From contig CAVRZR010000003.1 of NCBI GenBank assembly GCA_963725795.1, positions 387,359 to 451,358 on the forward strand: 64,000 nt of DNA, in the 5' to 3' direction. The translations under genes and the position numbers were made by a program. Source of the stretch: an uncultured Actinomycetes bacterium (GTDB taxonomy: Bacteria > Actinomycetota > Coriobacteriia > Anaerosomatales > CAVRZR01). How positions within the stretch are numbered: the first letter of the stretch is position 1; each line of letters starts with the position of its first letter. The notes below the pieces were generated by a model. It had not been told where the DNA came from. It worked only from the letters and a program-made list of their open reading frames with translations, and ran no database searches. Shown piece by piece: positions 7,559 through 38,737 of this stretch.

Positions 7559-7569
7559 ATGCGAGGGGC

Positions 7570-7703: not shown

Positions 7704-7757
7704 GCCGCCTCCACCCGTATCGGGCGCTCGGCACGCGCTAAGGAGGTGGCCTTTTTC
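7704..7757 (+). promoter_or_regulatory. terminator-like hairpin plus U-tract inside the hydrogenase 5' leader (possible attenuator)
   Basis: GCCGCCTCC (7704-7712) pairs with GGAGGTGGC (7742-7750), followed by CTTTTTCT. A 7-codon uORF ATG 7759..TGA 7782 follows. The structural gene starts at 7825. Confidence 0.3.
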
Positions 7758-7824
7758 TATGCCGGGTTCGGAACAGGTATGAGGCGTTAGCTTTTTACGA
7801 GCAAGCGAAGGAGGTATGGAAGGC

Positions 7825-9213: not shown

Positions 9214-9237
9214 CGCAAGGAAGGAGGGAAGACGTAA

Positions 9238-11417: not shown

Positions 11418-11443
11418 AAACCGAAGAACAGGAGGTGAACAGG

Positions 11444-12793
11444 ATGAAGAAGCTAAGCTTTGTGATCGTACTCGCATTCGCGCTCGTCCTGCTCTTCGGT
11501 GGAGCAGCCTACGCGAACTTCGGCCCGCACGGCGGGTTTGCAACCGACACTGATTCATGCGCCGGTTGTCACCGTGCACACACGTCGTTCTCGAGTGTGA
11601 CGTGGAACGATGGCGACAATGACCATAGCGCGCTGCTCGTCTCGTCGGCGACGACGATTCTCGAGTTTTGCTACGCGTGCCACGGTGACGACGCTCCTGG
11701 CGCTGCGACCAACGTCGAGTCTGGCATCTTCAATCCCGGCCCAACGTCGGCGTAGGCTCGCCGGCAGGTTCGTACGCGTATGCGTCAGACTCTGCGTTCG
11801 GCGCTCCGCTCAACGGCGGCGGTTTCGCTGAGGCTGGATACACGGTCGAGACTCCGACACCGTGACCTTCGGCCCGTCACGTCCATGCACGATATGGATA
11901 CGGGCACTGCGACGGACCCGATGTGGGGCGACGGCTCGTCGGCTCCGCCGGCACGAACCTCACCTGCACGAGCTGCCACGACGTCCACGGTTCGTCGAAC
12001 TACCGACTCCTGAAGGACTTCGTGAACGGCAACCCCGTCGGTGGCTATGTCGGTACCGACGGCGAAACCCCGAACCCGGTCGTCAGGTCGACCGAGACGA
12101 ACTACCCGGTCGTCGGCTGGCTGAAGCATCACGCCGGCTCTGTGCAGATGAGCTCTTATCTGCCGAACTACACGTCGGAGCAACAAGTACAACGGCATCG
12201 CTCCTCGAACGACCCCGTAGGCGGCGACATCGCGTTTGCTGGTACGCACCTTTCAATCTCCACCTGGTGCGCTGCGTGTCACGAGGAGTATGACGATCAT
12301 GGCGCAGCCGTCGGCAGCACCGAGTTCTACGACTACGGTGACTACGAGAAGGGCAGCATCACAGGGATCGGCGGCGGTAACATGACCACGCCGAACTCAG
12401 TGACGGCGACCGGCACCGACTCTATCGGCAACCGCGCCCGTCATCGCCACCCGGTCAACATCTCGTTGGCTGCTGGTGTCGGTCCGGACCGTGCCCTGCA
12501 GCAGGAGGTCATCACGAGCGACGTTCTGCCGCTCGAGGATGGTCCTGACGCCGATGACGGTCCGTGGACGACGCACGACTACATGGGCTGCCTCACCTGC
12601 CATCGTGCACACGGTACCGCGTCGACCATGACCGGTTGGGCAGAGGCCCGCTACATCACGAACGCTTCTGCGGTCGTGACCTGGCTGCCTGGAGATCGCG
12701 CAGCCCGCCCAGAGTGGCGTGAACCCGAACTTCACCAGCGCCCTCCTGCGTACCAACAACCGCGGCGTGTGCGAACGCTGCCACAACAAGTAG
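11444..12793 (+). pseudogene. secreted hexaheme c-type cytochrome, paralog B, directly downstream of hydrogenase (frame-disrupted as assembled)
   Basis: RBS GGAGG, ATG 11444. Signal peptide MKKLSFVIVLAFALVLLFGGAAYA. CAGCH, CYACH, CTSCH, CAACH, CLTCH, CERCH. Ends RGVCERCHNK-TAG 12791-12793. At least 3 frame changes. Confidence 0.8.
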
Positions 12794-12842
12794 ACTGCGG
12801 GGTCAGGCCTGCAGCCCGCCCTTCATCCAGTCTGCTTGACGG

Positions 12843-12870
12843 CGAGGCCCCGGAGCGATCCGGGGCCTCG
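12843..12870 (+). terminator. stem-loop terminator after the hydrogenase-cytochrome operon
   Basis: CGAGGCCCCGG-AGCGAT-CCGGGGCCTCG (11-bp stem). A perfect TATAAT follows at 12906-12911. Confidence 0.55.
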
Positions 12871-12997
12871 CTCGGTATCTGAGTGCGCACGCGCAATTTG
12901 GTAAATATAATCTCTGGTGCGGCGTTCGGAATGGATCCACCGCTCATGCCCACGCTAGATGCGTCTCCAACCCGCACGTTAAGAGAAGAGAGCGACT

Positions 12998-14416
12998 GTG
13001 ACTGTCTCGTCCGAGATTGAACCTTCGGCAAGTGGCTATGGGGCCTGGGCCTCATCGGGAATCCATTCGAGCCTCATGAACCCTTTGAGGAGTACGACGA
13101 CCCGGGCGTCAAGCTCATCGCGCATGCGGCCGCGAACACGTTCCTCTGCGTCGTGGACCGGATCGCAGACGAAGCCGAGCCGGCTCCGATCTGGATCGAG
13201 AAGGCAGGCGATCTGCCGGCGGCGTACTATCTGGCTCCGCTTGCCGAATCGTTGGGCGTCCTCGGCTCCAACAGCGCAGCTCACGACATCATCCCGGCTT
13301 ACGTTCCGCTCGACACGATGCGCATGGGGCGCGTTCGGGCGGCGCTGTCGGCTGTTGCCGAGCGCATCGCGGGCGTGGACGTCGATCTTACCCTCGCCAT
13401 CTGGCTCGGCAAGACGCTCGAGAATGCTGACGACAGCCTCGAGGAATACGCCGCAATCTCCGAAAGCGACCTGGACGGGCTGATACAAGGCCCTGCGGTC
13501 GGATCCGAAAGGCACGATGGAGCGCTACCTGGGCGCGTGCGAGGAAGAGCGAGAGGGCCTCAACGACATCGATATGCTCATGCGTATCTCGACGGCCCGA
13601 ATCGAAGCCCTGGACGCCGACCCGGAGGAGACTGCTGAGGCGAAGACGACCGAAGCGCCCGACGATCAAATGTCAGAAGTCTTCACCCAATCGCTCGCTC
13701 CTGTGCCGGAAGCGGATGCGGAGGGCAACGGTCAGCAGCCGGAGGAATCGGAACCGGACGACGATCTCCCGCGACGGGACGCCCTGGTCGCCTACTTCGT
13801 CGCGCATGTTACGAAGCACCTTTCTCCCGTGATCGCGCGCGCGATACGTGCCTATCGGGCGCAGGGGATCACATCGATGACCGAAGAGCTGAAGGTCACC
13901 AAAGCCCCAACGAAGACACTGGCCGCGCTCGTTCGCTTCGCGACGTGCCGCTACCGCAAGGTCGTCATACTGTTCGATCGCTTCGAGATGTGGCCGGCGA
14001 TCCCGCAGGATCTGCAGCTGAAGATGCTCGGCACCTTCTCGCAGCTGCGGTGGGCGTTGAGAGACGGTGGTCTGCTCGCATTCGTGGTCAAATCCGGCGA
14101 AGTCCGGGAGCTGGACGAGCAGTTCGGCAATGCAACACGGGTGGTATGGGATATGCCGGGGCTCGCCGAACTTGAGGGCAATGCGCCCCCATATGATCCT
14201 GGCTTCGCGCAGGCGTGGGTGGACGCCGCGACGCTGGCCGGTCGCGAGCCGATCGACATGTCCGCCGATCCGGTCACCAGAGTGATCGCCGGCTCAGACG
14301 GGTCCCTCAGGTCTGCGGCGATCCTTCTTGCGGCTGCAGTCGACGACGCTGCGAGGCGTGGGGCCTCCACCATCGACGCCGCTGCTGCCGAGGCCGCGCT
14401 CACGACCGGGGAGTAG
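12998..14416 (+). pseudogene. hypothetical cytoplasmic protein, degenerate AAA+/ORC-Cdc6-like (two frame changes as assembled)
   Basis: RBS AAGAGAAGAGAG, GTG 12998. GNPFEPHEPFEE near the N-terminus. No GxxxxGK(S/T) motif. Acidic low-complexity insert (EADAEGNGQQPEESEPDDD). VVILFDRFE Walker-B-like strand. C-terminal helix bundle GSLRSAAILLAAAVDDAARRGASTID reminiscent of an AAA+ lid. Confidence 0.3.
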
Positions 14417-14611
14417 CCGCTACGCGGGGGGGAGACCCCCTCGGCGGTCTCCGCTAGCCGCAGAAACCGGACGCCACCTCTTGGTCGGAGGCTGGGTGAC
14501 GCCCGCTTGAGACAACTGGCACATGGCGTGCTGAACTTGTGCCTGTTGCACCTACCACGATGCCGCGACCAGGCGTCGGCTCTTCCCAGCTCGCTGAAGG
14601 CTCAAGGAGTC

Positions 14612-15468
14612 ATGCCAAAGGGACCAGATACGTCGAACGAGCCGATTGCCCGATCCGACCGCCGGACACTGCTGTGGACGGTCGGGTCTATCGTCGCGCT
14701 CGCCCTGGTCATTTACGGCACGGCTGCTATCTCCGCGCCACGGGGCTCCGACACCCTCAAGGATCGTGCGTCGGTCGAGACCCCTTCCGATGGCGCAACC
14801 GCTACGAGCGCGTCGCTCTACGATCAGGCACTCCAGGCAGAGCGCGGCTGGAGACACGACGCGCGCTGCCGAACTGGCGCACCAGGCCACTGAGGCTGAT
14901 CCGGGGAACACCCGGGCCCTTCAGCTGAGTGTGAGATTGGCTTCAGCGCCCAGTGGCGAGAAAGGCGGCACCCAGCCGGTCGCAACATCACCCGAGCAGC
15001 CTGCGAAGACACCTGGATCGACAGCAGGCCCCCACGTCGAGCTCGGCGCCATCGCAACCGCGCGTCGCTAAGATCACTTCGTTGTTGCCGGTGTCGGTCG
15101 CCGGCTACTGGCTCGGCACGGTTCAGGCGGATTCGGAGGACGCAGTCCTGTCGGCGGAGCCGGACGTGGGCTCGGTTCCTTCACGCACGGTCGTTCGAGC
15201 GCTTCTGTGTGTTCACGACCGCAAGAGCGATGCAGCTGCGCTCGAGTGGGTCGACAAGATGAGCAGACGCGTATACGCGAAGGGCCTGAGCGACGTTTCC
15301 GTTGCCGGCTCTCCGGCGGTCTTCGGCACTGATGGCACTCGCCTTGCGTGGTGTGCGTACGCAAGTGGTCCCTACGTCTTCGAAGTTGTCGTCACGGCTT
15401 CGGCGAGCCCTGTCGCGGCGAAGCAAGTCACCCTCAAGCTCGCCGAGGCATTTCGTACGAAACGCTGA
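14612..15468 (+). pseudogene. membrane-anchored hypothetical protein, paralogous C-terminal domain to the 3650-4627 product (frame-disrupted)
   Basis: RBS AAGGAG, ATG 14612. TM helix LLWTVGSIVALALVIYGTAAI. TPR-like helix pair. C-terminal domain ...DRKSDAAALEWVDKMSRRVYAKG...FGTDGTRLAWCAYASGPYVFEVVV. Read through frames 2/3/1. Confidence 0.45.
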
Positions 15469-15483
15469 CAGGAGGCACTCCAC

Positions 15484-16807
15484 GTGAAAGCTCGACGCCT
15501 GCTACCCCTCCTCGCTCTTGCCCTTGCGTTGTCCGCTCTCGTACCTGTGGTTGCGGCGGCTGACGGCCCGAGCGCGCCTTCCCTGAGTCCCAAGACGATC
15601 CTGACCGAGGGCTTTGAGCAGCCGAGAGTCCCTCGTCGCCCCACTACCCGTTGAGCAGTCTAAGCTCGATCTACTTCGTCCCGGTACTGCGTGGTGGGGT
15701 CGAATTACCGCTGCAGGTTCCTACCGCACCGGTGCTTACGGTCTGTGGTGCGCCGGGGCACGAAGGGGACGTGGCCGACGTACCCCGTGAGACTCTGCCG
15801 GCTACGCCATCTTCACGGTCGACACCGCACAGTACTACTCTGCGTACGCGGACTTCTGGTACCGCATGCCGTCGCGCGGAGCAGCGGATCAGAACTCGTT
15901 CAGAATCGACTGGCTTGCCGACGTACCGGCGCGCAGAACCGGTACGTCCAAGACTTCGCCAAGACGAGCTCTTGGAGCCACCGCGTCATCGACGTCACGC
16001 CCACGTTGCTTTCGAGCAGCGAAGGACGGGAACCTGTCTCGCACGAACGGCATCGTTCGAATCCGTTGGAACGACTCCGCCGAGGGCGGTGCCCAATCAC
16101 CGATGACCGGCGCGGGACCGTGCGTAGACGACTTCGCGATCACAGGCTGGAAGTACGGACCCGTTCGGGACTTGGCGTGGACAGTGAGTCCCGCCTCCGT
16201 GACGCTCACGTGGAAGCGACCGTACCGGACAACCGCGAACACCGTTCTCGAGGATCGAACCATCGGCTATCGGGTCTTCCGTGCGGTGAGAGGGACGTCG
16301 ACCTGGACACAGGTGACGCCCTCGCTTCTGCAGAATGCCGGAGCGGCACTGACGTATACGGACAACTCTGTCTCGGCCGGGGTGCTCTACACATACGCGG
16401 TCCAGACATTCGACGCAGCAGGCGGGTACGGCATGCCCAAGCTGCTCGGACAGGCCCCGGCGACGCCTGCGCGCGTGAAGGCGTCGCTAAGCGCGCCGAA
16501 TCCCTCGGCGAGCAGGATGACGCGCAACCGATACTACTCGGCCTACGGTTTCCTCAAGCCTCGGCATACCGCTGGGACCTACCCGGTTCGCATCTATGCA
16601 TATCGCTGGGAGAAGTACCACGGCAAGTACCAGTGGAGATCGAAGGTCAGCTTCTCGGCTCGCGCCTACAACTACTCCACCTACACGATGTACAAGGGCA
16701 ACGTCCGCCTGACGGTCGCTGGTACGTGGAAGGTGCGCGCCTACCACACCGACTCGGGGCACCTCCCGACGTGGAGTGCCTACTCTCGCAACCTCTACGT
16801 GAAATAG
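15484..16807 (+). pseudogene. secreted protein with jelly-roll-like N-domain, fibronectin-III domain and C-terminal beta-domain (frame-disrupted in the 5' third)
   Basis: RBS CAGGAGG, GTG 15484. Signal peptide VKARRLLPLLALALALSALVPVVAAA. FN3-like segment VRDLAWTVSPASVTLTWKRP...YRVFRAV...YTDNSVSAGVLYTYAVQTFDAAG. Intact from about 16100 to TAG 16807. Confidence 0.5.
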
Positions 16808-17314
16808 CCCCGTTCGGCGCATCGAGCGACGATTCGACAAGCGTCGCATTCTGCCAGGAATGCGGGTTCGGCACGAAGCGCGGGCGCCCGGATTGCCTGA
16901 CTCCACGTGAGCTTGAGCGCAAACCACTTCTTCCACTATCGGTTTCTGCTGCTCAGCCCGTATAATCGATTCCAAATGCCCGCCGATTTGGCAACGCGGG
17001 CGGAAAGACGGCCGACCGAGTCTGCCGCCGGTCGATTGTGTGCTGCACGCCGCATCCGGCTGAAGGGCCCACGTGGAAGATAGCAACGCCCAAAGAACCT
17101 GCCTGGGGTCGACGGTGTTCGTGCAGCCCAGCCAGCCCTCGCGCGCTCGGACGGGTCGATGAGTAGACACGGGCGACATTCTCGTGCGTCGGGCGCTTCC
17201 CGGCTTCGGGTGTATGCGCGCGCTCACTCGCTTGCGCTCGTTGGAGCGGCCGTCATCGTGGCGCTGGCCATGGTGGTCATCGGCGCGATCGTGAGCGCTT
17301 CGGCGGCCGACACG

Positions 17315-20270
17315 CACGAGATCACGGCCTCTGCCGGCGCGGGAGGAACGATCTCGCCCTCAGGCGCCGTGACCGTCCCCGATGGGTCGACGGAGACCTT
17401 CACCATCACGCCAGCCAAGGGATACGTCGTAGCCGATGTGGTCGTCGACGGGGGCAGTCAGGGCGGCCTGCTTAGCTACGCATTTAGCAACGTCACTGCC
17501 GCGCACACGATTTCAGCGACGTTTGCGGTGGCCTCGGCAACCGGCGGCACCGTTACGGAGATTCTGGGCTATCGGATCCACCGGTTCACGACGACCGGTA
17601 CGTTCACGCCGAACGGTGCGGGCCTGATAGACGCCCTCGTCGTCGGAGGTGGAGGCGCAGGCGGCAGTGTTTCCGCGGTGGCGAACTACTACGCCGGCGG
17701 CGGCGGAGGAGGCGGGTTCCGCACTCAGACAGACGTGAGCCGTCGACTCCGCAACAAGCGTTGTCGTTGGCAGCGGGGGCATCGCCGCAGCCGGCGCGCC
17801 GGGCGGCTATGGAAGCTCTTCGGCATTCGGCTCGATCGTCGCGACAGGTGGCGGTGGTGGCGGTGCCGCGACCGGCTCCACGACAGTGTACGCCGGCCTC
17901 AGCGGAGGCTCGGGCGGCGGAGGAGCACGATTCGGGACGTCATACGGACCGGGCGGTCTCGGCGCGCTCGGGGAAGGCTCGGACGGAGCGGCAGCAGCGG
18001 CGAACCGAGGCGGCGGTGGTGGCGGTGCGAGCGCGGCCGCGACCACGCAGAATGGTGGCGCCGGGCAGTCAAGCACGTTCTCGGGCGCGACCGTTCGCTA
18101 CGCCGGTGGTGGCGGAGCAGGCGGGCTCACCGCCGGTACGGGCGCTGACGGCGGCGGCAACGGCGCGAGCACGGCGAACGGATCGCCGGGCGCCGTCAAC
18201 ACCGGTGGCGGCGGCGGTGGCGCCGGCACCGGCGGCGCCACGCCGAGAACCGGGGGCAACGGCGGCAGCGGCGTCGTGATCGTCCGCTATGCGATTCCCA
18301 CGTACGTAGTGACAGCCACAGCCGGAGTCGGCGGGACGATCTCTCCGAGCGGTGTGACGACTGTGAACGTCGGCGCGAATCAGTCCTACACGGTCGCAGC
18401 CAATAGCGGCTACTGCATCGTCGACGTGAAGGTCGACGGTGCGAGCCAGGGTCCCGTCTCGGGATACACCTTCAGCAACATCGCGGCGGATCACACGATC
18501 GCCGCCACCTTCGCGACCTTCCCGGCCACGGGTGGCAGCTCGCCCGTGCAGGATGGCACGCACGTCGTCCAGACGTTCACCTCCAGCGACGTGTTCACTC
18601 CGGTGGCGCCCCTGACGGCCGATGTCCTCGTTGTCGGAGGAGGAGGCGCGGGCGGAGGCAACTCAGCTAACGCAGGCTTCTACGGCGGAGGTGGGGGCGC
18701 CGGAGGATTCCGGGCTGCCACAGACGTCGAGGTGAGCGCGTCTGCGACAGTCACCGTCGGTCCGGGAGGTCTCGGCGCTTCGGCGGCGCGGGGCGGCTCG
18801 GGTGGCGCATCTTCGTTCGCGACGATCACCGCCGTGGGTGGCGGTGGCGGAGGCGCGGGCTCGGCGACGAATGCCGACGGTCTCGGCGGCGGGTCTGGAG
18901 GCGGCGGTGGCCACTACACCGCTAACGGCTCCGGCTGGTGCGGGGACATCCGCTGAAGGGAATGCGGGAGCAGCTGCCGCGTCCGGCCCCGATCGGGGCG
19001 GCGGTGGTGGCGGAGCGGGATTGGCGGCCACGTCGCAGAACGGCGGGGCGGGCCAATCCAGCAGCATTTCGGGCGCGAGCGTCACCTACGCCGGCGGCGG
19101 AGGTGCTGGCGCAGCGACTCCTGGGACCGGGGCAGCTGGCGGTGGCAACGGCAGCGGTGCAGGCAACGGATCCGCCGCTACCCCGAATTCGGGAAGTGGC
19201 GGCGGTGGCAGCGGCACGGGCAACGCCAATGCGCGCTCAGGCGGGAATGGCGGGAGCGGTATCGTGATCGTTCGCTACCAGCTGCCGTCCACGACCCACA
19301 CGATCGCCGCCTCTGCGGGCGCCGGTGGATCCATCTCGCCGAACGGGGTGGCTACGGTCTTCGCGGGCGGCAGCCAGACATATTCGATCACACCCAACAG
19401 CGGCTACTACATATTCGATGTCGAGGTCGACGGCGTGAGCCAGGGATCCGTTGTGGCTTACACCTTCTCGAATGTGACTTCGGACCACACGATCACGGCG
19501 ACCTTCGCCGCGCTACCAGCGAGCGGTGGTGGCACTATCACGCGCGACGGCGACTTTGTTGTGCATACGTTCACGAGTGGCGGCACCTTCGCGCCCGTCG
19601 TACCGGTCAATGCCGAAGTCCTGGTGGTCGCCGGAGGCGGCGGCGGCGGACGTCAGCCAGGCACCAACGGCAGGTTCGCCGGCGGCGGCGGCGCTGGCGG
19701 AGTGACGACCGCAACAGTTGCTGTTGCGTCGCCGGCCACCGTAGTTGTTGGTACTGGCGGGATAGGACCTGGCAACGTCAACCCGGGGTCTGACGGCGGC
19801 GCCTCTTCATTCGGCGCGGTCACTGCCGTGGGCGGAGGCGGCGGCGGGTCCCTGGCGGGGCGAAGCGGCGGATCCGGCGGCGGCGGTGGATGTACTTCTG
19901 CGGCCCAGGGCGTGGGCGGATCCGGCACGGCGGGGCAGGGCTTCGCGGGCGGATCCGGACTGACGAACACGGCCGCCGGTGGCGGCGGTGGCGCAGGAGG
20001 CATCGGCGCGGGAGGTGCGGTCGGCGGGCAGGGCGGCGTTGGCGGGAGCGGCACGCCGAGTTCCATCTCCGGCTCGCTGCTCTACTACGCGGGTGGAGGC
20101 GGCGGCGGCGGTGCGTCCGCCGGTGCCGGGGGAACCGGCGGCGGCGGGGCGGGAGGTGCCGGAGCATCAGCAGGAGCCAACGCGACCTTCTATGGCGGCG
20201 GCGGTGGCGGCGGCTCTCTCGGTGGCAGCGGCTACAGCGGCGTCGTTGTCGTCCGCTACGAGATCCCCAG
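17315..20270 (+). repeat. three tandem ~1-kb coding modules, each [InlB-B-repeat-like beta domain + ~230-aa glycine-rich domain]
   Basis: Module starts at about 17315, 18300 and 19294. B-repeat consensus: H(T/E)I(T/A)ASAGAGG(T/S)ISP(S/N)G...G(Y)...DV.VDG.SQG....YTFSNV...HTI.ATFA. Gly-rich consensus: TGG......H.FTS.G.F.P.....D/EVLVVGGGGAGG...GGNGGSG(V/I)VIVRY.(I/L)P. Confidence 0.7.
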
Positions 20271-21568
20271 CTACGCCGTCACGGCCACGGCGAGCGCCGG
20301 CGGTTCGGTGTCGCCGAGCGGCACGACGAACGTGCTCTACGGCGGAAACCAGACCTTCGCGATCACGTCCTGACGTCGGCCATCATACCGTTGACGTCCT
20401 CGTGGACGGCGTGAGCCAGGGCGCTCTGTCCGCGTACACGTTCTCGAGTGTCACGGCGAGCCACACGATCTCCGCGAGCTTCGCCGCGGACACCTTCACC
20501 ATAGCGACGGAACCGAGCGTGAATGGCACGATCACGCCGTCCTCGCCGACGGTGGAGTATGGCTCCAATCAGACGTTCCTGATCCAGCCGGATCCCGGCT
20601 ACCACGTCGCGGACGTCCTGGCTGACGGCGCGAGCCAGGGTGCGGTCAGCTCCTACACGTTCTACAACGTGAGCGCCGCCGGTCACACGATCTCGGCGGT
20701 GTTCGAGCTGGACGCAGCGACGGTGCTGGGAGTCTCCTCGGCGCACCAGCCTCCGGCAGCATTCGCTGCGCGCTCCAGCAGGCGCGCGGTGGATGGATTC
20801 ACACTCGCGCGCGTCTCAGGCTCGGATCCCATCTCGGCCACGGGCGTCACTGTCACGAACAGCGGTACGTCGCCTGAGGCGAACGTGAGCGGGGTCTATG
20901 TCTACCGTGACGACGGAAATGACGAGTTCGGGGTGCCCGACATCGCGCTGAACGTCACGGCCGGCAGCTTCAACAGTCCGACTGCGACGGTGACATTCGA
21001 CAGTCCGGAGTCCGTCGGCACCACGCCGACCCAGTACTGGCTGGTGTACGAGTTCGCGCCTCTCGCGAACGACGGTGTCACCACGGATTCGCGCATCGCC
21101 GAAGTGAACGCCGGTCCGATTCCGGTCGATTACACCGTGACGGCCGGCGCAACGTTCACCGTCGACGCCATTGGCCCCAGCGTGGCGATCGACGCTCCGA
21201 CGAATGACGCGACTCTCCTCGGCGCGTCCACCGTCATCTCCGGGACCGCGTCGGATTCCGGCTCCGGTGTAGGCCTGGTAGAGGTCTCGATACTGCGCTC
21301 CGACGGCAAGTTCTGGACGGGCTCCGATTGGTCTGCGACCCAGACGTGGCGCTCGGCGATCGGTACGTCCACGTGGACCTATGGCTGGGTCCTCGATGCG
21401 GAGCAGAGCGGTCTTCAGACCTACACCATCTCAGCGCGTGCGACCGACGGCGTCGGCACCGGGGGAGACGAGGCGCTCGTGACCGGTGTTCGGGTGGAGA
21501 ACTCCACCCCGATCGAAGTCTCCGACGTGCCTCCGCCGCACGTCAGTACCGGCGACGACACGGACGCG

Positions 21569-22396
21569 TGCGCGATGTGCCACCGCTCCCATACCTCGGC
21601 CTCGACCGATACATGGCAGAGCGGGGAGGCGTCGGCCGCGCAGCGGACGTCACTCAGTGTCGGAACCGGAACGTACGACGCCGGCATGTGCTACTCGTGT
21701 CACGGCGTCGAGTTGCTCGGTTCTGGGACGGACATCCAGACCCCATTCCAGAGCGGCTCCGGCCATGTCCTGGCCCCTGACACGAGCCCGTACGGGCCCT
21801 CCCCCAAGGAGTGCAGCGACTGCCACGATCCGCATGGCACCGACCATACCTCCGGCGGGACGCCATATCCGGCGCTCCTACGCTCAATGGACGCGAGCGG
21901 AAGTCCCGTATACCAAGGCGACGTCTACTGCGTGAGCTGCCATGAAGTGCGACCCGGCAGCACGTGGGACGGGTTGGGCGTCTGGCGCACAACGGCGCAC
22001 GCGGGCATGCCCGGCCCCGCTTCGGGCACGGGCATCGTCTGCTCCGACTGTCACGACCCGCATGGGTCACCGAACGCCCCGACGATCGCGCCTCGCGTGT
22101 ATCCGCCCTCAGCGCCGGCTACGGCGGCGGTGACGGCGAACGATCGGACGCTGTGCGTGGCGTGCCACGCCGAAGCGACGGCCACCTGGGGTGGCTCCTC
22201 GCTCTACTCCTCCAGCTCGCATGCCTCGTCCAACGCGACCGTCGGCATTCCTGGCGAGTGGCCGGATCCGGATGCCTCTCGAAAGGTCGGAGAGTGTCAG
22301 GTCTGTCACAACCCGATGGGAGAGGATGACGGTACGGGACGCGCCCTTCCCAAGCTCACGCGGATCTCGGGCGAGAACCTCTGCTACACGTGCCAC
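21569..22396 (+). other. heme block 1 of giant protein: 8 CXXCH motifs
   Basis: CAMCH (21569-21583), CYSCH, CSDCH, CVSCH, CSDCH, CVACH, CQVCH, CYTCH (22382-22396), all in frame 2. Confidence 0.85.
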
Positions 22397-22479
22397 GGTG
22401 CCACCGGCCCCGCCCGGACGGACATGCGCACGGTAGCGGTCGAAACCACGCTGACGAGCGCGTTCGAGGTCGTGGCGAG

Positions 22480-23610
22480 CTTCAGCGCCGCCGGTGACAT
22501 GCCGGACTACGGGCGCGTGCTCTATTACTCGCAAGACAGCTCCGCGACACCGCCGAGGCCTCTCCTGGGCGCGAGGCCGCTCCGGACTGCGGCGGGCGTC
22601 GGCGCCGTCGCGGCGGGTGACATCGACGGAAACGGTCGTGCCGAGATCCTCGTGGCAGACTCCGCCTCGCTGCAGATAGACGTCTTCGCGTACGACAAGC
22701 TTCGCGGCGTGTCCGACCGTGTCGGTCCGGGTCTCCTGCCGGTGGCCGCCACTGCCGAGTACCTCGCTGTTGGTGACGTGCTGCTGGACTCATGGGGATT
22801 GCCGGAAGTCGTGATGATCGACAGGGGCGCGAACGAGCTGTACGTCTATCGCTACGCAGCCGCGACGTGGACTCTGGTCGATGGGCCGATCGCGGTCGGC
22901 AACGTGAGCGGGATGACCATCGGTGATGTGACCGGGACGTCTCAGGCCGATGTCGTGCTCACCGTTCACGGGCCGGATCGTGTCGTCGTCCTGTCGGAGG
23001 ACTCAGGCCACCTGCTCGAGAGCTCAGTGTTCGGTGCGCGCGCGGGCGTGCGCGGTCCGAGCATCGGCGATGTGTTGTCGGAGCCGGGCAATGAGATCGT
23101 CGTGGCCAATGCCGACGAAACGAGCGACACCGTGTCGGTCTATCGTGCCGACGGCACGACGCTCGGCCACCTCAACGGTGATGAGCTGCCCGGTCAGCGT
23201 GCGACGGCGTCCGCGATAGGAGACGTCCTGCCTGAGGTTCCCGGCCCCGAGGTTCTTGTTTCTTACGCGGATCCTCTGGCGGGCAGTCGGCTGGACGTGT
23301 TCTCGCTCGATGCTACGACCGGTGTGGGCACCGTGGTCGGCTACGACGCGGGAGAGCGTTTCAACCCGGCTGCGATCGCGGTCGGGGACGTGAATGGAGA
23401 CGGGCACAGCGAAGCGCTGCTAGCAAACGCCGGGGCGTTCACGCGTGACGGATCGCGCGAGCGCGCCTCGGTCTCTGTGTTCCGCGCAAACGGAACGGGG
23501 GACGGGCTTGTCGGGCCTCAGATCCTCTCTGGCGGTGGCGCGGAACTCGCGAGCGGGACTGTCCAAGTCGCGATCGCGGACGTGGGAGCGACCCCTCAGA
23601 CTGGACACCC
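22480..23610 (+). other. FG-GAP/VCBS-type beta-propeller region of giant protein
   Basis: About seven repeats of the GD(I/V)(D/N/T)G.G..(E/D)(I/V/L)(L/V)V type: GDIDGNGRAEILVAD, GDVLLDSWGLPEVVMID, GDVTGTSQADVVLT, GDVLSEPGNEIVVAN, GDVLPEVPGPEVLVSY, GDVNGDGHSEALLAN, IADVGATPQ. Confidence 0.6.
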
Positions 23611-23674
23611 GATCGGCGCGGTCCCGGATACGCATGTGTCGACCGAGACGTTCACTCTCGCTCGCCACGTCGAG

Positions 23675-24382
23675 TGCGTCGACTGCCACTCTCACGACGC
23701 TGACAGCGCGGACGCCTCCGCCCCTGTCGTCTTCGGCGCGCTGAAGGGCGCGTGGGGAGTTGCGGTTCAGAATCAGTCATCGGCTGCATACGACCTGACA
23801 CAGCAGCAGGGAGTCCGCTACGAGTACGAGCTCTGCCTGAAGTGCCATTCGCAGTGGTCGGCTCTGGAAGGCAGCGCCGACCTGGCGTCTCTGGTAAACA
23901 CGCGGAACGCGTCGGTGCATGCGATCGAAGAGCCGTCCGCCGACGCGAGCATCCCGGCTGGTTCGTTCCAGGACGGCTGGAGTGACGACTCGGCGCTTTA
24001 TTGCACCTCGTGTCATGGGAACTCGAATCCTTCAGAACCCGCAGGCCCGCATCGCTCGGGTGAGGCGCCCATCCTCGTTCGACCGTACTGGGGCGTCGCC
24101 CCGGACGATGCGGCGGGTCTGTGCTACGAATGTCACCGATATGCCGTGTATCTGACGGGAGCGGAAGACACGTTGGCGGATCCGAAGAGCGCCTTCTACC
24201 TGTCCACGGGTTCGGGCTCCACGGGCCAAGAGGCGCTGCACTCCTACCACGCAGATACACTCGGGTTCGCCTGCGGCTCGTGTCACGTCTCACACGGCTC
24301 GCGGCAGGAGCTGCACTTGCTGCGTTCGGACATCGGCTACACGCCCGATGCGAGCGGCGGCTCGTGCGCGAATCAGTGCCAC
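23675..24382 (+). other. heme block 2 of giant protein: 5 CXXCH plus 1 CX3CH
   Basis: CVDCH (23675-23689), CLKCH, CTSCH, CYECH, CGSCH, CANQCH (24365-24382). Confidence 0.8.
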
Positions 24383-24451
24383 GGAACCGGAGGCGCGACC
24401 AGGTCGTACCTCAGGCCGTAGCCGCGAACGCCTGCGACAGTCGGTGGTCGG

Positions 24452-32785: not shown

Positions 32786-33100
32786 GTGGCGGACCGTCGC
32801 GTCGACTACTACCGCGTCCTGCAAGTCCGTCGCGACGCGGAACCTGAAGTCATCGAGCGCGCGTACAAGGCGCTCTCGCTCAAGTACCACCCTGACGTCG
32901 CTCCGCCGCATCAAAGACCTGCTGCGACGAAGCGGATGCAACTCATCAATGAGGCGTATGGAACCCTCAAGGACCCTTCGGCGCGCCGACGCTACGACGC
33001 GACGCTCCCGCCGGAGGGGATGCCGCGTACTGCGTGGGACGAGTTCTGGGAGAAAGGTCTTGTCGGGCTCTTCCGGGAACGCTACTCCGCTCGGCGCTAG
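32786..33100 (+). CDS. J-domain (DnaJ N-terminal domain only) protein
   Basis: DYYRVLQVRRDAEPEVIERAYKALSLKYHPDV...INEAYGTLKDPSARRRYD. Confidence 0.7.
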   Translation: MADRRVDYYRVLQVRRDAEPEVIERAYKALSLKYHPDVAPPHQRPAATKRMQLINEAYGTLKDPSARRRYDATLPPEGMPRTAWDEFWEKGLVGLFRERYSARR

Positions 33101-34285
33101 CGATCCGCGTTTGTGCGCGGTCCGGCTCGGCGAATGCCGAGCGTGTGCCTGCCCAGGGTCCGGGCCAGTATCGGTGCAGAGAGCCCGATGACCTGGGGCG
33201 GGCAGAGCTCCTGGCAACAGTAGCAGCGGATGCACGTGCGGTGATCGAACGTCGGGCCCCCCTGACCAATCGCGATCGCACCGACCGGGCACGATCGTTC
33301 GCACGTGCGGCACTTCGTGCAGCCGCTTGTGCGTGCGAGATACGGTCTCGCTGTCGTCCACTGCCGGAGCCGCCTGCCGAGCCAGCGCGGCATCCTGCTC
33401 GAGAGATCGCGTGAAGGCAGCTCGAACTCGGCGGGAGAGAGTGCTCGCCAGTCCTCCCCGAGCATCTCGACCGCGTCCGCGCCGCTTGGACCCAAACCGC
33501 GCCGGGACGCCGCCTTGTTCGTGTAGACCTCGAGAGGGTCGAGCCCGGCCATCGCCGAGGCAACCACATCCAGGGCCACCGAATCGGTCGACGCAATCAA
33601 CGCTCCGATGGCGCGCGGTTTGCCGCCGGCAGGTCCATCGCCCTCCATACCGACGACGGCGTCCATCACTGCGAGGGCGGGTCGGCAGGCGAGCATGAGA
33701 TCGACGAGCATCTCGCCGAAGTCATCGCGGTCCGGCACCTTCAGATGGTATTGCGCTTTCTCCAGAGCCCGGGATGCAACCAAAGAGGTTCTTCACAGCA
33801 CCCGTGAACATCATGAAGCCGTGCGTCTTGAACTTGGGCACTGAGATCAAGACGTCCGCCTCGGCGACCAATCGTCCGACTGTGAACGCGCCGTAGAGCG
33901 TGCCGCTCGGGTTCGCGACCCTGATCGCGTCATCGTCGAACAGAACGAGTTCGGCCTCTTCTTCCGAGCAGACGGCGGCCATGCCCGTCGCCGCGTGCAA
34001 GGACCTGATCTGCGCGGAGGTGTTCGGACCGCCGGGACTGTCCCCGACCATCGGGAGACCGCCTGCTGCGCGCACCGAACGGACGAGAGCCCGGACGACT
34101 TCGGGATGCGTGGTGACAGCGCGCTCGGGCGTCGCCTTGGCGAGAAGGTTGACCTTGATCAGTACGCGGTCTCCCTCGCCGACGAATGCGCTCATGCCTC
34201 CGAGGGGAGCCAATGCGGCGTCGAGCGCAGCCGATACCGCCTCCGGATCGTAGGTGGCGCAGTGCGCGATGCTGACGCCGCTCAC
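33097..34285 (-). pseudogene. DUF362-domain protein with C-terminal 2x[4Fe-4S] ferredoxin domain (one frame change near 33775)
   Basis: GTG 34285. ...VLIKVNLL...VTTHPEVVRALV...ISVPKFKTHGFMMFTGAVKNLFGCIPG then a shift (G-run) to LEKAQYHLK...MDAVVGMEGDGP... and CTKCRTCERSCP / CIRCYCCQELCP. Confidence 0.7.
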
Positions 34286-34309
34286 CGGAGGGCGCGGCTC
34301 AGACGCCGA

Positions 34310-34648
34310 CTATGCTTCGACAGCATCGAGCTTGGTCTGAACGGCGCGCATGATCGCGGGATAGGACACCGCGCCATCGTAGAGCGGCGTGCCGTCGACC
34401 ACGGTTACCGGGTACAAGAGCCCACGCAGCTCGATCTCGTCGATCAGGCGGCGATGCTCGGCCTGTACGTCTGCTTGTGCGACATCGAGATAGACGATCC
34501 GAACGGAGTCGCCGAAACGGCGCTCGAGTTCGGCACGGACGATGGCCGTGATCTCCTCCGGAGACCACGACGGACCTCAACCGCCGCTGAAACATGAGGT
34601 CTGCGCGGGAAGATCGAGAACTTGGATTTTCACGGCCGGTTCTGCCAT
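34310..34648 (-). CDS. ArsD/YuzD-like thioredoxin-fold protein with in-frame UGA (candidate selenoprotein, C-X4-U)
   Basis: RBS AGGAG, ATG 34648. MAEPAVKIQVLDLPAQTSCFSGG-TGA(34579-34577)-GPSWSPEEITAIVRAELERRFGDSVRIVYLDVAQ...YPVTVVDGTPLYDGAVSYPAIMRAV...-TAG 34312-34310, all in one frame. Resembles ArsD (VFDPAMCCSTGVCG...LPLLLLDGE). Confidence 0.5.
34545..34571 (-). promoter_or_regulatory. SECIS-like hairpin 6 nt downstream of the in-frame UGA
   Basis: mRNA sense GUCGUGGUCUCC-GGA-GGAGAUCACGGC: 12 bp including two G-U pairs that would be mismatches on the opposite strand. The GG of the apical loop lies 17-19 nt after the UGA. Confidence 0.4.
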
Positions 34649-34674
34649 GTCTACTGCTCCTGTTCGCTCGTCGG

Positions 34675-34879
34675 CTAGTTCGATGATATCGCTTGGCCCG
34701 GACATACCCGCGCGCACACACCACAGCCCGCACACAGTTCGTCGAGAACGGCGTATCCGTTGGCGCCGGGGTAGGGCCCGCCGGGAACGGGGATTATTGC
34801 GCCTTTCGGACATACACGGCGCGCCGGGCAGCCCGGGTGATCTGTCGCAGGCGCTGGTGTCGATGCTGACGATACTCAT
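34675..34879 (-). pseudogene. small 2x[4Fe-4S] ferredoxin (frame change in first cluster motif)
   Basis: RBS GGAAGGA, ATG 34879. MSIVSIDTSACD... then a shift to ...GCPARRVCPKGAIIPVPGGPYPGANGYAVLDELCAGCGVCARVCPGQAISSN-TAG 34677-34675. Confidence 0.55.
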
Positions 34880-34923: not shown

Positions 34924-34952
34924 AATATACCCCATGGGGTATCGGTTGGCAA
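34924..34952 (-). promoter_or_regulatory. sigma-70-like promoter of the ferredoxin / Sec-protein / DUF362 operon
   Basis: Minus-strand TTGCCA (34952-34947), 17-nt spacer, TATATT (34929-34924), about 45 nt upstream of ATG 34879. Confidence 0.45.
34927..34942. promoter_or_regulatory. perfect 16-bp palindrome ATACCCCATGGGGTAT (operator candidate, CsoR/RcnR-like shape)
   Basis: Fills the spacer and overlaps the -10 of the minus-strand promoter. It sits in the divergent intergenic region with ridA. Confidence 0.5.
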
Positions 34953-35497: not shown

Positions 35498-35758
35498 ACG
35501 GACCTCAAACGAAGCGCCGTGGGAAGCGTGAATCGTCGCACGGAGCTGCAGTCGACCCGCACTCGACGCTGGCGCGCGTGATTCGAAACACGGTGCACGT
35601 GCGGGCAGGGAAGATGCGTGCGGCGTCGAATCTCGTGGCAGATGCTGGACTGTGCGGTTGAGGGCGGCCAGCGGTTTCAGATATCGTTAGCTTTCAGGAA
35701 TGGGAGCGGGCGCTGCCCGTTCTTGTCGTGCGCGGCGAGAGCACCCGGGAGAGGACAC

Positions 35759-37792
35759 ATGGCGAAGATCTCGTTTGCTGGATGGAAGGACCCGGTCCGG
35801 AGGCCCCGGTACATCATCTGGACCGGTGTCGCGGTTCTCGTGATCGCGGTTTTCGCGATTCTCGCGTTAGGGGCGACCTCGACCTACTGGTTCTGCGCCA
35901 GCATCTGCCACAAGGTCCAAGACGACAGCATCATCGCCTACAACCGCTCCAGCCATAGCCAGATCTCATGCATGTCATGCCACGAGCCGGTGAACGCCGA
36001 TCCGGTGACGTTCATCCTCGCCAAGGCGGAAGCCCTCGGCGAGTTGTATCTCACGGCCCTGAACAAGTACGAGCTGCCGCTGAACGCGGAGAGCCACTAC
36101 TCCCTGGAGCTGGAGTCCAGGCAGTGCACTCAATGCCATTCGGAGAACCGCATCATCACGCCGACACAGGGCGTGATCATCGACCACGATGTCCACGCCG
36201 AGAAGGAAGTGCAGTGTACGTACTGTCACAACCGGATCGCGCATCGGGAGGACTTCGAACTCACGCTGAAGAACCCGGACGGTAGTCCGAGTCACAAACA
36301 CGACGACTTCATGTCCATGACCGCGTGCTTCCGTTGCCACAGCCAGGGCGAGGACGGGCTCGAGCGTCCGCTCGAGGCGGCGGGAACATGCAGCCTCTGT
36401 CATCCGTCGAACTTCCAGCTCAAGCCCGCCAGCCACTTCGAGCAGGACTTCTACCCCAAGGGCCACGCCGAACTGGCAGCCGAGGTCCAGACCGAGACGG
36501 CCGAGGCGCGCAAGGAGGCTGAGGCCGAGGGCGAAGGCGAGGGCGGCGAGGAGCCTCTCGGCATGCAGCTCCCGACGGTGGCCGAGGTGAACTACTGCGA
36601 GACGTGCCACAACAAGGAGACCTTCTGCAACGGTTGCCACGGCATGGAGATGCCGCACCCGGCCGAATTCCTCGAACCTGCGAGTCCGACCGATCCGGCG
36701 GGCCACCCCGAGGTGTCGAAGAAGGCACCGGATAAGTGCGAGATGTGCCACCAGGTCAAGAAGACGGACTTCTGCAACAAGTGCCACCACGGTACGTACG
36801 TGAGCTGGGACTACAAGTCCGCGCCGCCGTGGATCAACCAGCACGCCACGGCGGTCAACAAGACCGGCATAGCGCCGTGCACCCAGAAGTGCCATACCAC
36901 GACGTTCTGTTCGGACTGCCACACCAAGCTCAAGCCGATACCGACGTCCCACAAGCAGAAGACGTGGCTGCACAACAAGACGACCGTGACTGTGCCGGGT
37001 CAGGCTGCGGCGAAGCCGACCGCGCTGCACGCGACCAACGCGCTGAACGACATGGAGACCTGCACGGTGTGTCACGGCAACAAGGACGCGAACGCGAAGT
37101 TCTGCAAGGCATGCCATAAGCTGGAGACGCCTCACCCCGAGCAGTTCAAGGAGTTCCACTCCAAGACTGGCAAGTCCAATCCGGCCGTGTGCCTGAACTG
37201 CCATCGATTCACCGAGATCTGCAGCAACTGTCACCACATCGGCTCGTCGCTCAGGGCCCCGTGGATGAACATCCATGGAGCCTCGGTGGCGAAGAACGGA
37301 GCGGCAGGCTGCATAGAGAAGTGCCACCAGAAGAAGGACTGCGTTGCGTGCCATACCTCTCGCAAGGTCGTTCCCGCATCGCACAAGACGAAGGACTTCG
37401 TGAAGCGTACGAAGCCCGACGTACCCGCGAAGCACACGACGCAGTACGAGCAGAACTCAGACGCATGCACCTACTGCCACGGCGACGGCGGTCCGAATGC
37501 CAAGTTCTGTAAGAGCTGTCACAAGCTCGACATGCCGCACCCGATCGACGAGAACAACAAGCAGAAGTTCCCGCACAAGGATCAGCTCAACAAGGGCGCG
37601 TACAAGAAGGTGCAGTGTACGAACTGCCATACGCAGTACTTCTGCGACAGCTGCCATCACGAGGGCGCCTCGGCTAAGCAGCCCTGGCGGACGTACCACC
37701 CCACTGTCGTGAAGAAGAACGGCGCGGAACCCTGCTTCGAGTGCCACGCCGAGACGTTCTGTTCGTACTGCCACGTGCGACTCAACAAGTAG
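35759..37792 (+). CDS. membrane-anchored 24-heme c-type cytochrome: NapC/NirT-like N-terminal module plus three hexaheme repeats (intact)
   Basis: ATG 35759. TM helix YIIWTGVAVLVIAVFAILALGA. 21 CXXCH plus 3 CX3CH (CASICH 35894, CTQKCH, CIEKCH) in 677 codons. The first four motifs are spaced as in NapC/NirT/CymA quinol dehydrogenases. Confidence 0.9.
   Translation: MAKISFAGWKDPVRRPRYIIWTGVAVLVIAVFAILALGATSTYWFCASICHKVQDDSIIAYNRSSHSQISCMSCHEPVNADPVTFILAKAEALGELYLTALNKYELPLNAESHYSLELESRQCTQCHSENRIITPTQGVIIDHDVHAEKEVQCTYCHNRIAHREDFELTLKNPDGSPSHKHDDFMSMTACFRCHSQGEDGLERPLEAAGTCSLCHPSNFQLKPASHFEQDFYPKGHAELAAEVQTETAEARKEAEAEGEGEGGEEPLGMQLPTVAEVNYCETCHNKETFCNGCHGMEMPHPAEFLEPASPTDPAGHPEVSKKAPDKCEMCHQVKKTDFCNKCHHGTYVSWDYKSAPPWINQHATAVNKTGIAPCTQKCHTTTFCSDCHTKLKPIPTSHKQKTWLHNKTTVTVPGQAAAKPTALHATNALNDMETCTVCHGNKDANAKFCKACHKLETPHPEQFKEFHSKTGKSNPAVCLNCHRFTEICSNCHHIGSSLRAPWMNIHGASVAKNGAAGCIEKCHQKKDCVACHTSRKVVPASHKTKDFVKRTKPDVPAKHTTQYEQNSDACTYCHGDGGPNAKFCKSCHKLDMPHPIDENNKQKFPHKDQLNKGAYKKVQCTNCHTQYFCDSCHHEGASAKQPWRTYHPTVVKKNGAEPCFECHAETFCSYCHVRLNK
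36596..37792 (+). repeat. three tandem intragenic repeats, six heme motifs each
   Basis: Repeat starts at TGC 36596, 37061 and 37466. Shared pattern CxxCH-x8-11-FCxxCHk(l)(e/d)mPHP ... CxxCH-x4-5-(F/I)CxxCHh ... PW ... C(x2-3)CH-x3-4-(F/D)CxxCH. Confidence 0.8.
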
Positions 37793-37846: not shown

Positions 37847-37927
37847 CGCTGTGGCACGCGGACCTCGGATTCGCTGGCGCGATTCATCTTTGCGCTGGTG
37901 TCGCGAGCGTGTATGATACGGCGGCGT

Positions 37928-38004
<77 letters not shown>

Positions 38005-38062
38005 GCCCGCACCTTCAACGGCAGGCCTCAGCGCCTGCCGTTGCCCATCTGGGGAGCAAGGT

Positions 38063-38737
38063 TTGTACGAAACGCTGCTCCAGCTGTTCGGCTACGGCCT
38101 GTGCCATCAACTGCCCGAACGCTCCTTGTTCGGCGGATCCGTACAGGTGCCCGTTTGCGCTCGGGACACGGGGATATACGTCGGCATCGTCCTGTCGCTC
38201 ATCCTTGTTGCTGCGCTGCAGTGGCGGCCGTCCTCGCTTCCGTCGATGCGTGTGGGACTGGTCATGGTCGCCTTCGTCGGCGTCATGGCGCTTGACGGCG
38301 TGACCTCCTATGCGGGCCTCCGACAGACGACGAACGAACTCCGACTGATCACCGGGCTGCTGTCCGGGTACGCGATCGGCGCTCTGATGGCGCCTCTTCT
38401 CAACGATCAGCTCTGGCGGCGCTCGTCGGCGGAGCGCGTGCTTGGCGACGCGAGGAGCTTCTGGCTCTGGCTCGCTTCGATTCCGGTGGCGTATGTCCTC
38501 ACGTGGTGGGGAGGCGACGTCTTGGGGCGGCTGTTCCCGCTATTGGTCGTTGTAGCCATCCTGTGGTCGTTCACGGTTGCCAACCTTCTGATCGTCACCC
38601 TGTTCCGCCGCTTCGAGCGGCGCGCTGACACCGTCATCCAGGCGTGGGCGCCGATAGGCATCGCTTTCGCGCTCGCGTGGATTGAGATCGCTGCCAGCGC
38701 CGGTATCAAGTTGGTGCTCGTGTCGCTCTTGTCCTGA
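38063..38737 (+). CDS. DUF2085-family membrane protein
   Basis: LFGYGLCHQLPERSLF...VPVCARDTGIY signature followed by 4-5 TM helices. TTG 38063 after GGGGAG; the ORF is open from 37898, overlapping the tRNA. Confidence 0.6.
   Translation: MYETLLQLFGYGLCHQLPERSLFGGSVQVPVCARDTGIYVGIVLSLILVAALQWRPSSLPSMRVGLVMVAFVGVMALDGVTSYAGLRQTTNELRLITGLLSGYAIGALMAPLLNDQLWRRSSAERVLGDARSFWLWLASIPVAYVLTWWGGDVLGRLFPLLVVVAILWSFTVANLLIVTLFRRFERRADTVIQAWAPIGIAFALAWIEIAASAGIKLVLVSLLS

Follow-up and report, generated by a model that had tools for sequence, protein, structure and literature searches.

A candidate thioredoxin-fold selenoprotein family related to DUF1462 and ArsD proteins in Anaerosomatales

Introduction

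What does a TGA codon mean when it interrupts an otherwise continuous small gene? The question is raised by a locus on the minus strand of a 64-kb stretch of DNA (positions 387,359 to 451,358 of the 592,725-bp contig CAVRZR010000003.1, here called the window), which comes from an uncultured bacterium of the order Anaerosomatales. The gene in question has 112 codons, and its codon 24 is TGA. In an initial annotation it was described as a candidate selenoprotein related to ArsD and YuzD, with selenocysteine (Sec, U) at that codon. The analysis reported here indicates that this small gene very probably encodes a Sec-containing thioredoxin-fold protein in which residue 24 (U24) is Sec, because its internal UGA, like the hairpin that follows, has been retained in each of the related genomes examined.

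Results

Conservation of the In-Frame TGA

Direct translation of the window confirmed the single frame described initially, which runs from ATG to TAG with the TGA of codon 24 as its sole interruption (Table 1). The translation around codon 24 reads MAEPAVKIQVLDLPAQTSCFSGG*GPSWSPEE.... Relatives were collected by scanning one genome per GTDB species, which yielded 80 loci, all from metagenome-assembled genomes (MAGs) labelled Coriobacteriia, Anaerosomatales or Actinomycetota; one of them, L018, belongs to the complete chromosome OW818687.1. Together with the window they form a set of 81 sequences with protein identities of 55–84%.

An in-frame stop lies at exactly codon 24 in 80/80 related loci, in the context C-x-[SGI]-G-G-*-G-P-x-W-[ST]-P-E-E. 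This stop is TGA in 81/81 sequences when the window is counted, and TGC or TGT, which would have replaced it in related strains had the window been aberrant, was seen at codon 24 in none of the 80 genomes. Recurrence of TGA at the same codon in 80 related genomes and the window far exceeds chance. The conservation runs over the full length of the protein across the TGA in the 80 genomes, and the residues on either side are conserved while their codons vary. The residues GPSWSPEE, directly after the UGA, are the most conserved of the protein. Cys19, the upstream partner of U24, is encoded by both TGC and TGT across the 81 sequences and is also invariant in alignment A3. The family can be described by the sequence pattern TGAGGNCCNNNNTGGTCTC. 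The related genes themselves end with TAG (47), TGA (28) or TAA (5), and since TGA terminates 28 of these same 80 genes, it is not reassigned in these organisms.

A protein search returned 292 relatives. Among the best 120, 113 are gene calls of 61–87 aa starting past the UGA position, six are full-length proteins of 121 aa with CCSSGCCGP, and in the remaining one (P0001) W stands where the UGA is. No conserved start codon is present 3' of the TGA, and gene callers pick many different, non-homologous starts; in the window, the frame after the UGA contains no ATG, GTG or TTG before codon 78. The Sec TGA is translated as W in two gene calls from JGI and ENA, P0001 (locus L082) and P0179 (locus L088), and these W calls apparently stem from genetic code 4 or 25 applied to contigs of organisms that do not use these codes.

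A SECIS-Like Hairpin Constrained at the RNA Level

The initial annotation proposed a 12-bp hairpin with the apical loop GGA behind the UGA, resembling a selenocysteine insertion sequence (SECIS). This hairpin is the minimum-free-energy (MFE) fold in the window, but only its upper 8 bp are conserved across the 81 sequences. The eight core pairs are formed in at least 97% of the sequences (77 distinct), while the four lower pairs are formed in only 25–78%. Two G-U pairs had also been pointed out: G15-U29 is kept in 81/81 close relatives, and the other sits in the non-conserved lower stem. The folding energy is −28 kcal/mol for a 56-nt stretch (z = −2.74; 0/200 shuffles as stable), −19.5 kcal/mol for the 30-nt hairpin stretch alone, and −9.3 kcal/mol for the 8-bp core.

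The published model of bacterial SECIS elements (bSECIS) specifies a loop of 3–9 nt with G in its two opening positions, an upper stem of 4–16 bp, a distance of 16–37 nt from the UGA to the loop, and an MFE no higher than −7.5 kcal/mol (PMC13188914). The conserved stem begins 9 nt past the UGA, and with its GGA loop at 17 nt, its 8 bp and its −9.3 kcal/mol it lies within all four constraints. The description as SECIS-like is thus upheld, and the orthologs keep the element at the RNA level, as described below. Like the elements of the E. coli fdhF type and the Zhang and Gladyshev consensus, it is a hairpin inside the open reading frame (ORF), just past the UGA, with a 3-nt loop opening with GG; unlike them, it has no Rfam SECIS model match, and its stem sequence is specific to the family.

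Among the 81 sequences, hardly any synonymous changes occur in the codons +4 to +9 after the UGA (TGG TCT CCG GAG GAG ATC). Ser+5 is TCT in 79/79, Pro+6 is CCG in 78/81 (the remaining three are CCA/CCC), both Glu codons are GAG in 81/81, and Ile+9 is ATC in 79/79. In contrast, Ser+3 is spread over six codons, with TCT in only 4/79. Ser columns outside the hairpin likewise use six codons with a TCT share of 1–5%, and the invariant DGAVSYP block has a synonymous entropy of 0.75–2.1 bits per codon, its Ser being TCT in 1/80. The constrained codon block coincides exactly with the 8-bp stem UGGUCUCC/GGAGAUCA and the GGA loop. Because synonymous variation is near zero there and free at other conserved residues, the hairpin block is constrained as RNA.

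Cys-Form Homologs

Three syntenic loci (L081, L086, and L087) encode 121-aa Cys forms with TGC at the codon aligned to the UGA. Their neighbourhood consists of a 60-aa ferredoxin gene upstream and a DUF362 gene downstream, with the same DUF2085 and SAM_HAT synteny as in the Sec loci. As they share the ferredoxin, the DUF362 gene and the wider synteny, these Cys forms are true orthologs. In all three, W-S-S-E-E-I is encoded with varying codons (TCT/TCA, GAA/GAG, and ATC/ATT), and the core hairpin is weaker, at −1.3 to −6.4 kcal/mol versus −9.3 kcal/mol in the Sec form. The RNA-level constraint on the hairpin is relaxed in the Cys forms.

Four distant full-length homologs (P0129, P0161, P0163, and P0173) also have Cys at the UGA position; the motif is C-DAVD-C-GP in P0173 and C-GSTT-C in P0129. 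The family profile matches one solved structure, 1XG8 (S. aureus SA0798, YuzD-like), with an E-value of 4e-5. In the CASC motif of this structure, the second Cys aligns with U24 and the first with Ser21. The earlier placement of the UGA at a Cys position is therefore matched by the syntenic TGC orthologs, the distant homologs, and the CASC motif of 1XG8.

Distant Members of the Family

An exhaustive profile search revealed 62 clusters at 50% identity, mostly N-terminally shortened gene calls, and the DNA of six distant members was inspected. In each of the six, the equivalent site is occupied by an in-frame TGA, at GC contents of 42–64% (Table 2). The G-U pair G15-U29 is replaced by G-C in two of them (L089 and L092). 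The hairpin of L088 is unrelated to that of the other members, and this candidate element is at a SECIS-compatible distance. In 12 hand-picked variant sequences, pairing is found in 93.8% of cells versus 90.2 ± 1.2% in shuffles, and the changes among them comprise one compensatory pair and four one-sided ones. The pair changes in the distant homologs give modest support to the hairpin, in a selected sample.

Table 2. The in-frame TGA region of six distant family members.
Locus	GC content	Motif	Hairpin behind the UGA
L088	42%	C-x2-U	Unrelated hairpin GCUUCA[CGGG]UGAAGC, loop 22 nt past UGA
L089	60%	CCTSGU	G-U to G-C
L090	61%	CRSGGU	Closing C-G to A-U
L091	55%	CFSGGU	Closing pair open; 7-bp stem, loop AGGCA
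L092	64%	CRVGU	C-G to U-G, G-U to G-C
L093	61%	CFSFGU	Closing pair open; 7-bp stem, loop GGGAG

A scan for in-frame TGAs of the Fdh, UxxC, and CxxU types near the family members revealed only one gene, that of a TIGR02187 protein disulfide oxidoreductase (PDO) adjoining the L090 member. It matches the model with 272 bits (cut-off 185), is split into two ORFs by the gene caller, and has its own in-frame TGA at UxxC. TIGR02187 is a known selenoprotein family, and because this neighbouring selenoprotein gene has its own in-frame TGA, the L090 lineage uses Sec. In this cluster (L090:337-1180 and L090:1706-2374), an FmdB-type zinc-ribbon gene lies upstream and the TIGR02187 gene downstream of the family member. 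The zinc-ribbon gene ends with ...GGG-TGA-G-I-stop, which would place Sec three residues from the end.

Other neighbours of the distant members were noted as well. A second FmdB-type zinc-ribbon gene, ending with ...GGG-TGA-R-I-stop, lies just upstream of the family member in L089 (L089:1549-1994), and a TlpA/AhpC-TSA-like WCGPC protein is encoded on the opposite strand of that locus. In L091, genes for a thioredoxin-domain protein and a DUF302 protein precede the Sec gene, which is followed, with touching coordinates, by the gene for a 323-aa flavoprotein similar to thioredoxin reductase (Pyr_redox_2; L091:3001-4220). This arrangement suggests that the reductant in the L091 lineage differs from the ferredoxin of the window clade. 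The L093 member adjoins a CsoR-type repressor, and the members in L089 and L090 are near DsbA, PDO, and TlpA-like proteins.

Fold and Relationship to YuzD-Like and ArsD Proteins

The window protein matches Pfam DUF1462 (PF07315) with 33.9 bits against a gathering cut-off of 25. DUF1462 was found in 35/35 full-length members, and ArsD was matched weakly (E ≤ 1) in 31/35. The window protein itself has no match to the ArsD models of Pfam or NCBIfam at E ≤ 1, nor to any other NCBIfam model at that threshold, and for the Cys form P0002 the NCBIfam ArsD model, whose cut-off is 90, gives 23.8 bits.

For the Cys ortholog P0002, AlphaFold (AF2) gave a model with a pLDDT of 77.6, below 50 in the Cys loop, and with the topology beta-alpha-beta-alpha ... 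beta-beta-alpha, as in solved thioredoxin-fold proteins. Foldseek with this model ranked 1XG8 first and ArsD structures (3KTB, 3MWH, and 3KGK) second to fifth, followed by thioredoxins, at TM scores of 0.45–0.65. The Pfam matches to DUF1462 and ArsD, together with the structural matches to 1XG8, ArsD and thioredoxins, bear out the ArsD/YuzD-like thioredoxin fold proposed in the initial annotation.

YuzD-like proteins (PF07315, 1XG8), which are known from Firmicutes, are the best match in both sequence and structure. They share with the present family a size of ~110 aa, the thioredoxin-like fold, and the place of the active-site residue behind strand 1. They differ in the motif: YuzD-like proteins have CxxC (CASC) with Cys throughout, whereas the present family has C-x4-U, and only the second position, that of Sec, is common. 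Unlike YuzD-like proteins, the present family is distributed over Coriobacteriia and several uncultured lineages and always shows the in-frame UGA with the SECIS hairpin.

ArsD proteins (PF06953, NF033727; 3MWH, 3KGK, and 3KTB) also have the thioredoxin-like fold in common with the family and likewise lack a classical CxxC. Their metalloid site, made up of Cys12, Cys13, and Cys18 (CCSTGVC), has between Cys13 and Cys18 the spacing of C19 and U24. The cysteine loop is thus C12-C13-x4-C18 in ArsD, CCSSGCC in the Cys forms, and C-x4-U in the Sec form; by the established ArsD numbering, the Sec form has Ser at the equivalent of Cys12 and keeps the equivalents of Cys13 and Cys18. The present family differs from ArsD in that its neighbourhood contains neither an ars operon nor a partner ArsA, and the scores are far below the ArsD thresholds. 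To our knowledge, a Sec-containing ArsD has not been described.

Comparison with Catalogued Selenoproteins

Sec-thioredoxin, Sec-glutaredoxin (UxxC), the PF13192 proteins Sec.1 and Sec.2, and the TIGR02187 PDO are all small thioredoxin-fold proteins with Sec in place of a redox Cys, and they likewise have Cys homologs and an intragenic bSECIS. Small proteins of this kind are the commonest bacterial selenoproteins (PMC13188914). The present family differs from them in belonging to PF07315 and in having C-x4-U followed by GP, not UxxC, CxxU or CxU.

A review of May 2026 contains a table of 119 families and subfamilies of prokaryotic selenoproteins, each listed with domain identifiers and most of them defined by NCBIfam models (PMC13188914). 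PF07315 and PF06953 are absent from this table, and it has no entry with a C-x4-U or GGUGP motif (PMC13188914). A full-text literature search for DUF1462, YuzD or ArsD together with selenoprotein terms found nothing. The initial annotation could not name the protein as a known selenoprotein family, and no name has emerged, as it has neither an NCBIfam match nor a place in the catalogue. It is concluded that, being absent from the 119-family catalogue, the NCBIfam models and the literature searched, the family is a new one within a well-known kind: thioredoxin-fold selenoproteins with an intragenic bSECIS.

Gene Neighbourhood

The features of the locus are summarized in Table 1. The 7-Cys ferredoxin gene is directly upstream in 75/81 loci, with a conserved Cys pattern. 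The first Cys of the ferredoxin is followed by Asp (CDRSP/CDNSP) in nearly all sequences compared. From the residue pattern, one of its clusters is predicted to be either 3Fe-4S or to have a non-Cys or external ligand. The DUF362-Fer4 gene is directly downstream in 32/81 loci (~40%). DUF362 has no known function and shares a Pfam clan with the N-terminal domain of LarA (PMC11770544). The gaps on the two sides of the Sec gene are 26 and 24 nt, and together with the promoter-like site ahead of the ferredoxin gene they suggest a single operon.

Table 1. Features of the candidate selenoprotein locus in the window.
Feature	Position	Strand	Remarks
Candidate selenoprotein coding sequence	34310..34648	-	DUF1462/ArsD-like, thioredoxin fold; ATG 34648-34646, TAG 34312-34310; 112 codons, predicted Sec at codon 24
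In-frame TGA, read as selenocysteine U24	34577..34579	-	TGA in 81/81 sequences and 6/6 distant homologs
Cys19 codon (TGT), partner of U24 in the C-x4-U motif	34592..34594	-	Cys invariant in 81/81
Shine-Dalgarno-like AGGAG	34657..34661	-	8 nt upstream of ATG, read directly from the sequence
Conserved core of the putative SECIS	34549..34567	-	5' arm UGGUCUCC 34567-34560, loop GGA 34559-34557, 3' arm GGAGAUCA 34556-34549
Full 12-bp hairpin as folded in the window	34545..34571	-	MFE fold; lower 4 bp lineage-specific
7-Cys ferredoxin, upstream partner gene	34675..34879	-	Pfam Fer4 families; C-x5-C-x5-CP ... CxxCxxCxxxCP
DUF362 domain followed by 4Fe-4S dicluster domain, downstream gene	33097..34285	-	Pfam
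Promoter-like site TTGCCA-17-TATATT	34924..34952	-	Ahead of the ferredoxin gene; consensus scan, 10/12 positions, pattern match only

Synteny across the clade extends to the wider neighbourhood, which includes RidA, an NrfH-like multiheme cytochrome, DUF2085, SAM_HAT, a DnaJ-domain protein, EamA, and VanZ. None of the ars genes arsA, arsB, acr3, arsC, and arsR is present in the conserved neighbourhood.

Both neighbour genes are frameshifted in the window. In the ferredoxin gene, a 1-nt insertion is found at 34832-34837 (CCCGGG versus CCCGG in L001), and in the DUF362 gene one is found near 33766 (GGGCTCTGGAG versus GGGC-CTCGAG in L001), so that positions 1–135 and 128–199 of the Pfam profile are matched in two different frames. 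These frameshifts indicate either assembly errors or operon decay in the window genome. Since the MAGs L053 and L061 show similar gene splits, assembly indels are likely, and real operon decay or pseudogenisation in the window genome is possible.

Large multiheme c-type cytochromes are encoded elsewhere in the window (19979-24421, 35618-37792, and 11923-12882). One of them, of 1480 aa, is MtrC/MtrF-like with FG-GAP domains, and another, of 724 aa, has an NrfH-like N-terminus and many CxxCH motifs. Their presence fits the iron-reducing Anaerosomatales reported previously (PMC9686372). Positions 1-19000 contain mostly short ORFs with coding-like GC3, and several longer ORFs there (2035-3648, 6470-7399, 13517-14416, and 15866-16807) have no Pfam match; further frameshifted genes, or proteins specific to the lineage, may be present in this part of the window. 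The DUF2085 ORF (37898-38737) overlaps tRNA-Pro(CGG) (37928-38004) at its 5' end, and its true start therefore lies downstream of 38004.

Discussion

Proposed Function

In the proposed mechanism, the UGA at codon 24 would be decoded as Sec, with an intragenic bacterial SECIS, the UGGUCUCC/GGAGAUCA stem capped by GGA, as the signal. By analogy to the established bacterial mechanism, SelB loaded with Sec-tRNA(Sec) would be recruited by this SECIS. Together with the invariant Cys19, Sec24 would form a C-x4-U pair on a flexible loop that links strand 1 to helix 1, at the position occupied by the CxxC of YuzD-like proteins and by Cys13/Cys18 of ArsD. Most likely, this pair would cycle between the selenolate/thiol and selenenylsulfide states as a thioredoxin-like redox carrier. 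The likely electron partner in the window lineage is the 7-Cys ferredoxin, predicted to be co-transcribed, and the adjacent DUF362-ferredoxin protein probably also takes part in the ~40% of genomes that have it.

Several observations weigh against this interpretation. Neither the 64-kb window nor the related loci, 0.94 Mb in all, yielded selA, selB, selC or selD: ARAGORN detected no tRNA-Sec in the window or in 85 loci, a Pfam search of ~40 window ORFs gave no SelA, SelB or SelD, and motif scans for SelD and SelA over the 0.94 Mb gave nothing. Sec decoding in the window organism would be indicated by the UGA, the Cys/Sec pair, and the hairpin, against which the absence of sel genes from the sequence covered has to be set. 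No SECIS family was matched in a permissive Rfam scan of 34250-34750, where the sole hit, to a miRNA, is a chance one. The close clade offers no covariation in the stem, since the stem is invariant there; this near-invariance is explained by the stem also encoding the conserved W-S-P-E-E-I. What covariation signal there is comes from a few hand-picked distant sequences. Finally, both neighbour genes are frameshifted in the window, and the function as a redox carrier is drawn only from the fold, the motif, and the gene neighbourhood.

Alternative Interpretations

The TGA might be a sequencing error or a nonsense mutation in a pseudogene, with TGC or TGT as the true codon. The 1-nt indels that break both neighbour genes, the split genes in the MAGs L053 and L061, and the origin of the window from a 593-kb contig would agree with it, but the TGA is present in 80/80 independent species-level genomes and in 6/6 distant homologs, a substitution error is not expected to recur at one base in assemblies of many projects, and the hairpin behind the TGA is under selection at the RNA level. 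The recurrence in 80/80 genomes effectively refutes a sequencing error, and the probability left to either version is negligible. It is also highly improbable that the UGA simply terminates translation, giving a 23-residue peptide and a separately started, N-terminally shortened DUF1462 protein. Public annotations give this shortened form in almost every gene call, with products of 62–87 aa, but no conserved start follows the UGA, with none in the window frame until codon 78, and GPSWSPEE right after the UGA are the most conserved residues of the protein. As judged from the modelled fold, the shortened product would also lack strand 1 and the whole active-site loop. Read-through with a residue other than Sec, either Trp or Gly by reassignment or Cys or Trp by hairpin-stimulated near-cognate suppression, would be consistent with the W given by the pipelines for P0001 and P0179 and with the Sec machinery not being found in the window. 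Yet the DNA behind these W calls reads TGA, and translation under table 11 does not yield the products, while TGA is the normal stop of 28/80 of the genes. Moreover, homologs carry Cys at the aligned position, which is the hallmark of Sec/Cys pairs, the hairpin fits the SelB-type SECIS model in distance, loop G content and stem length, and one distant member is next to a gene of a known selenoprotein that itself contains a UGA. Such read-through is thus regarded as very improbable.

A different question is whether a true selenoprotein may act as an ArsD-like chaperone, binding a metalloid or metal such as As(III), Sb(III) or selenium between Cys19 and Sec24 and passing it on to a partner. The C-x4-U spacing equals Cys13-x4-Cys18 in ArsD as given above, the CCSSGCC of the Cys forms resembles the CCSTGVC of ArsD, weak ArsD matches were obtained with Pfam and NCBIfam, ArsD structures rank second to fifth in the fold search, and one distant member adjoins a CsoR-type metal-sensing repressor. 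On the other hand, arsA, arsB, acr3, arsC, and arsR are absent from the conserved neighbourhood, the ArsD score is far under the family cut-off (23.8 bits versus 90), the Sec form retains just two of the three ArsD ligands, and the neighbours are electron-transfer and thiol-redox proteins. A chaperone role is considered unlikely. Because the neighbours share thiol and electron-transfer chemistry, a redox carrier is tentatively favoured over a metalloid chaperone as the mechanism of action predicted from the sequence.

A more specific arrangement can be imagined for the favoured redox carrier. The ferredoxin and the Sec protein, with the DUF362-ferredoxin in some genomes, might constitute an unrecognised selenium-dependent electron-relay module. 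As the ferredoxin has only seven Cys, one of its clusters is a ligand short, and Sec24/Cys19 might complete or adjoin this cluster, which would then reduce the selenenylsulfide directly, by analogy to ferredoxin:thioredoxin reductase. This proposal is speculative and probably incorrect, but if true, it would offer a first way to approach the function of the YuzD and DUF362 families in subsurface Actinobacteria that reduce iron.

Implications

The new family has consequences for annotation. Databases carry hundreds of fragments of 60–90 aa, named "DUF1462 family protein" or "disulfide oxidoreductase YuzD", that correspond to the C-terminal two thirds of the selenoprotein; the names given to such fragments at NCBI are "DUF1462 family protein" or "hypothetical protein". 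One well-supported family is added to the bacterial selenoproteome. YuzD/DUF1462 and the ArsD-like proteins are thioredoxin-fold families that are poorly understood, and the position of the predicted Sec shows which of their residues is the catalytic one. The 7-Cys ferredoxin, with which the protein is tightly paired, is suggested as a candidate electron donor. Anaerosomatales has cultured members (PMC9686372), and selenium labelling and genetics may therefore be feasible in this order.

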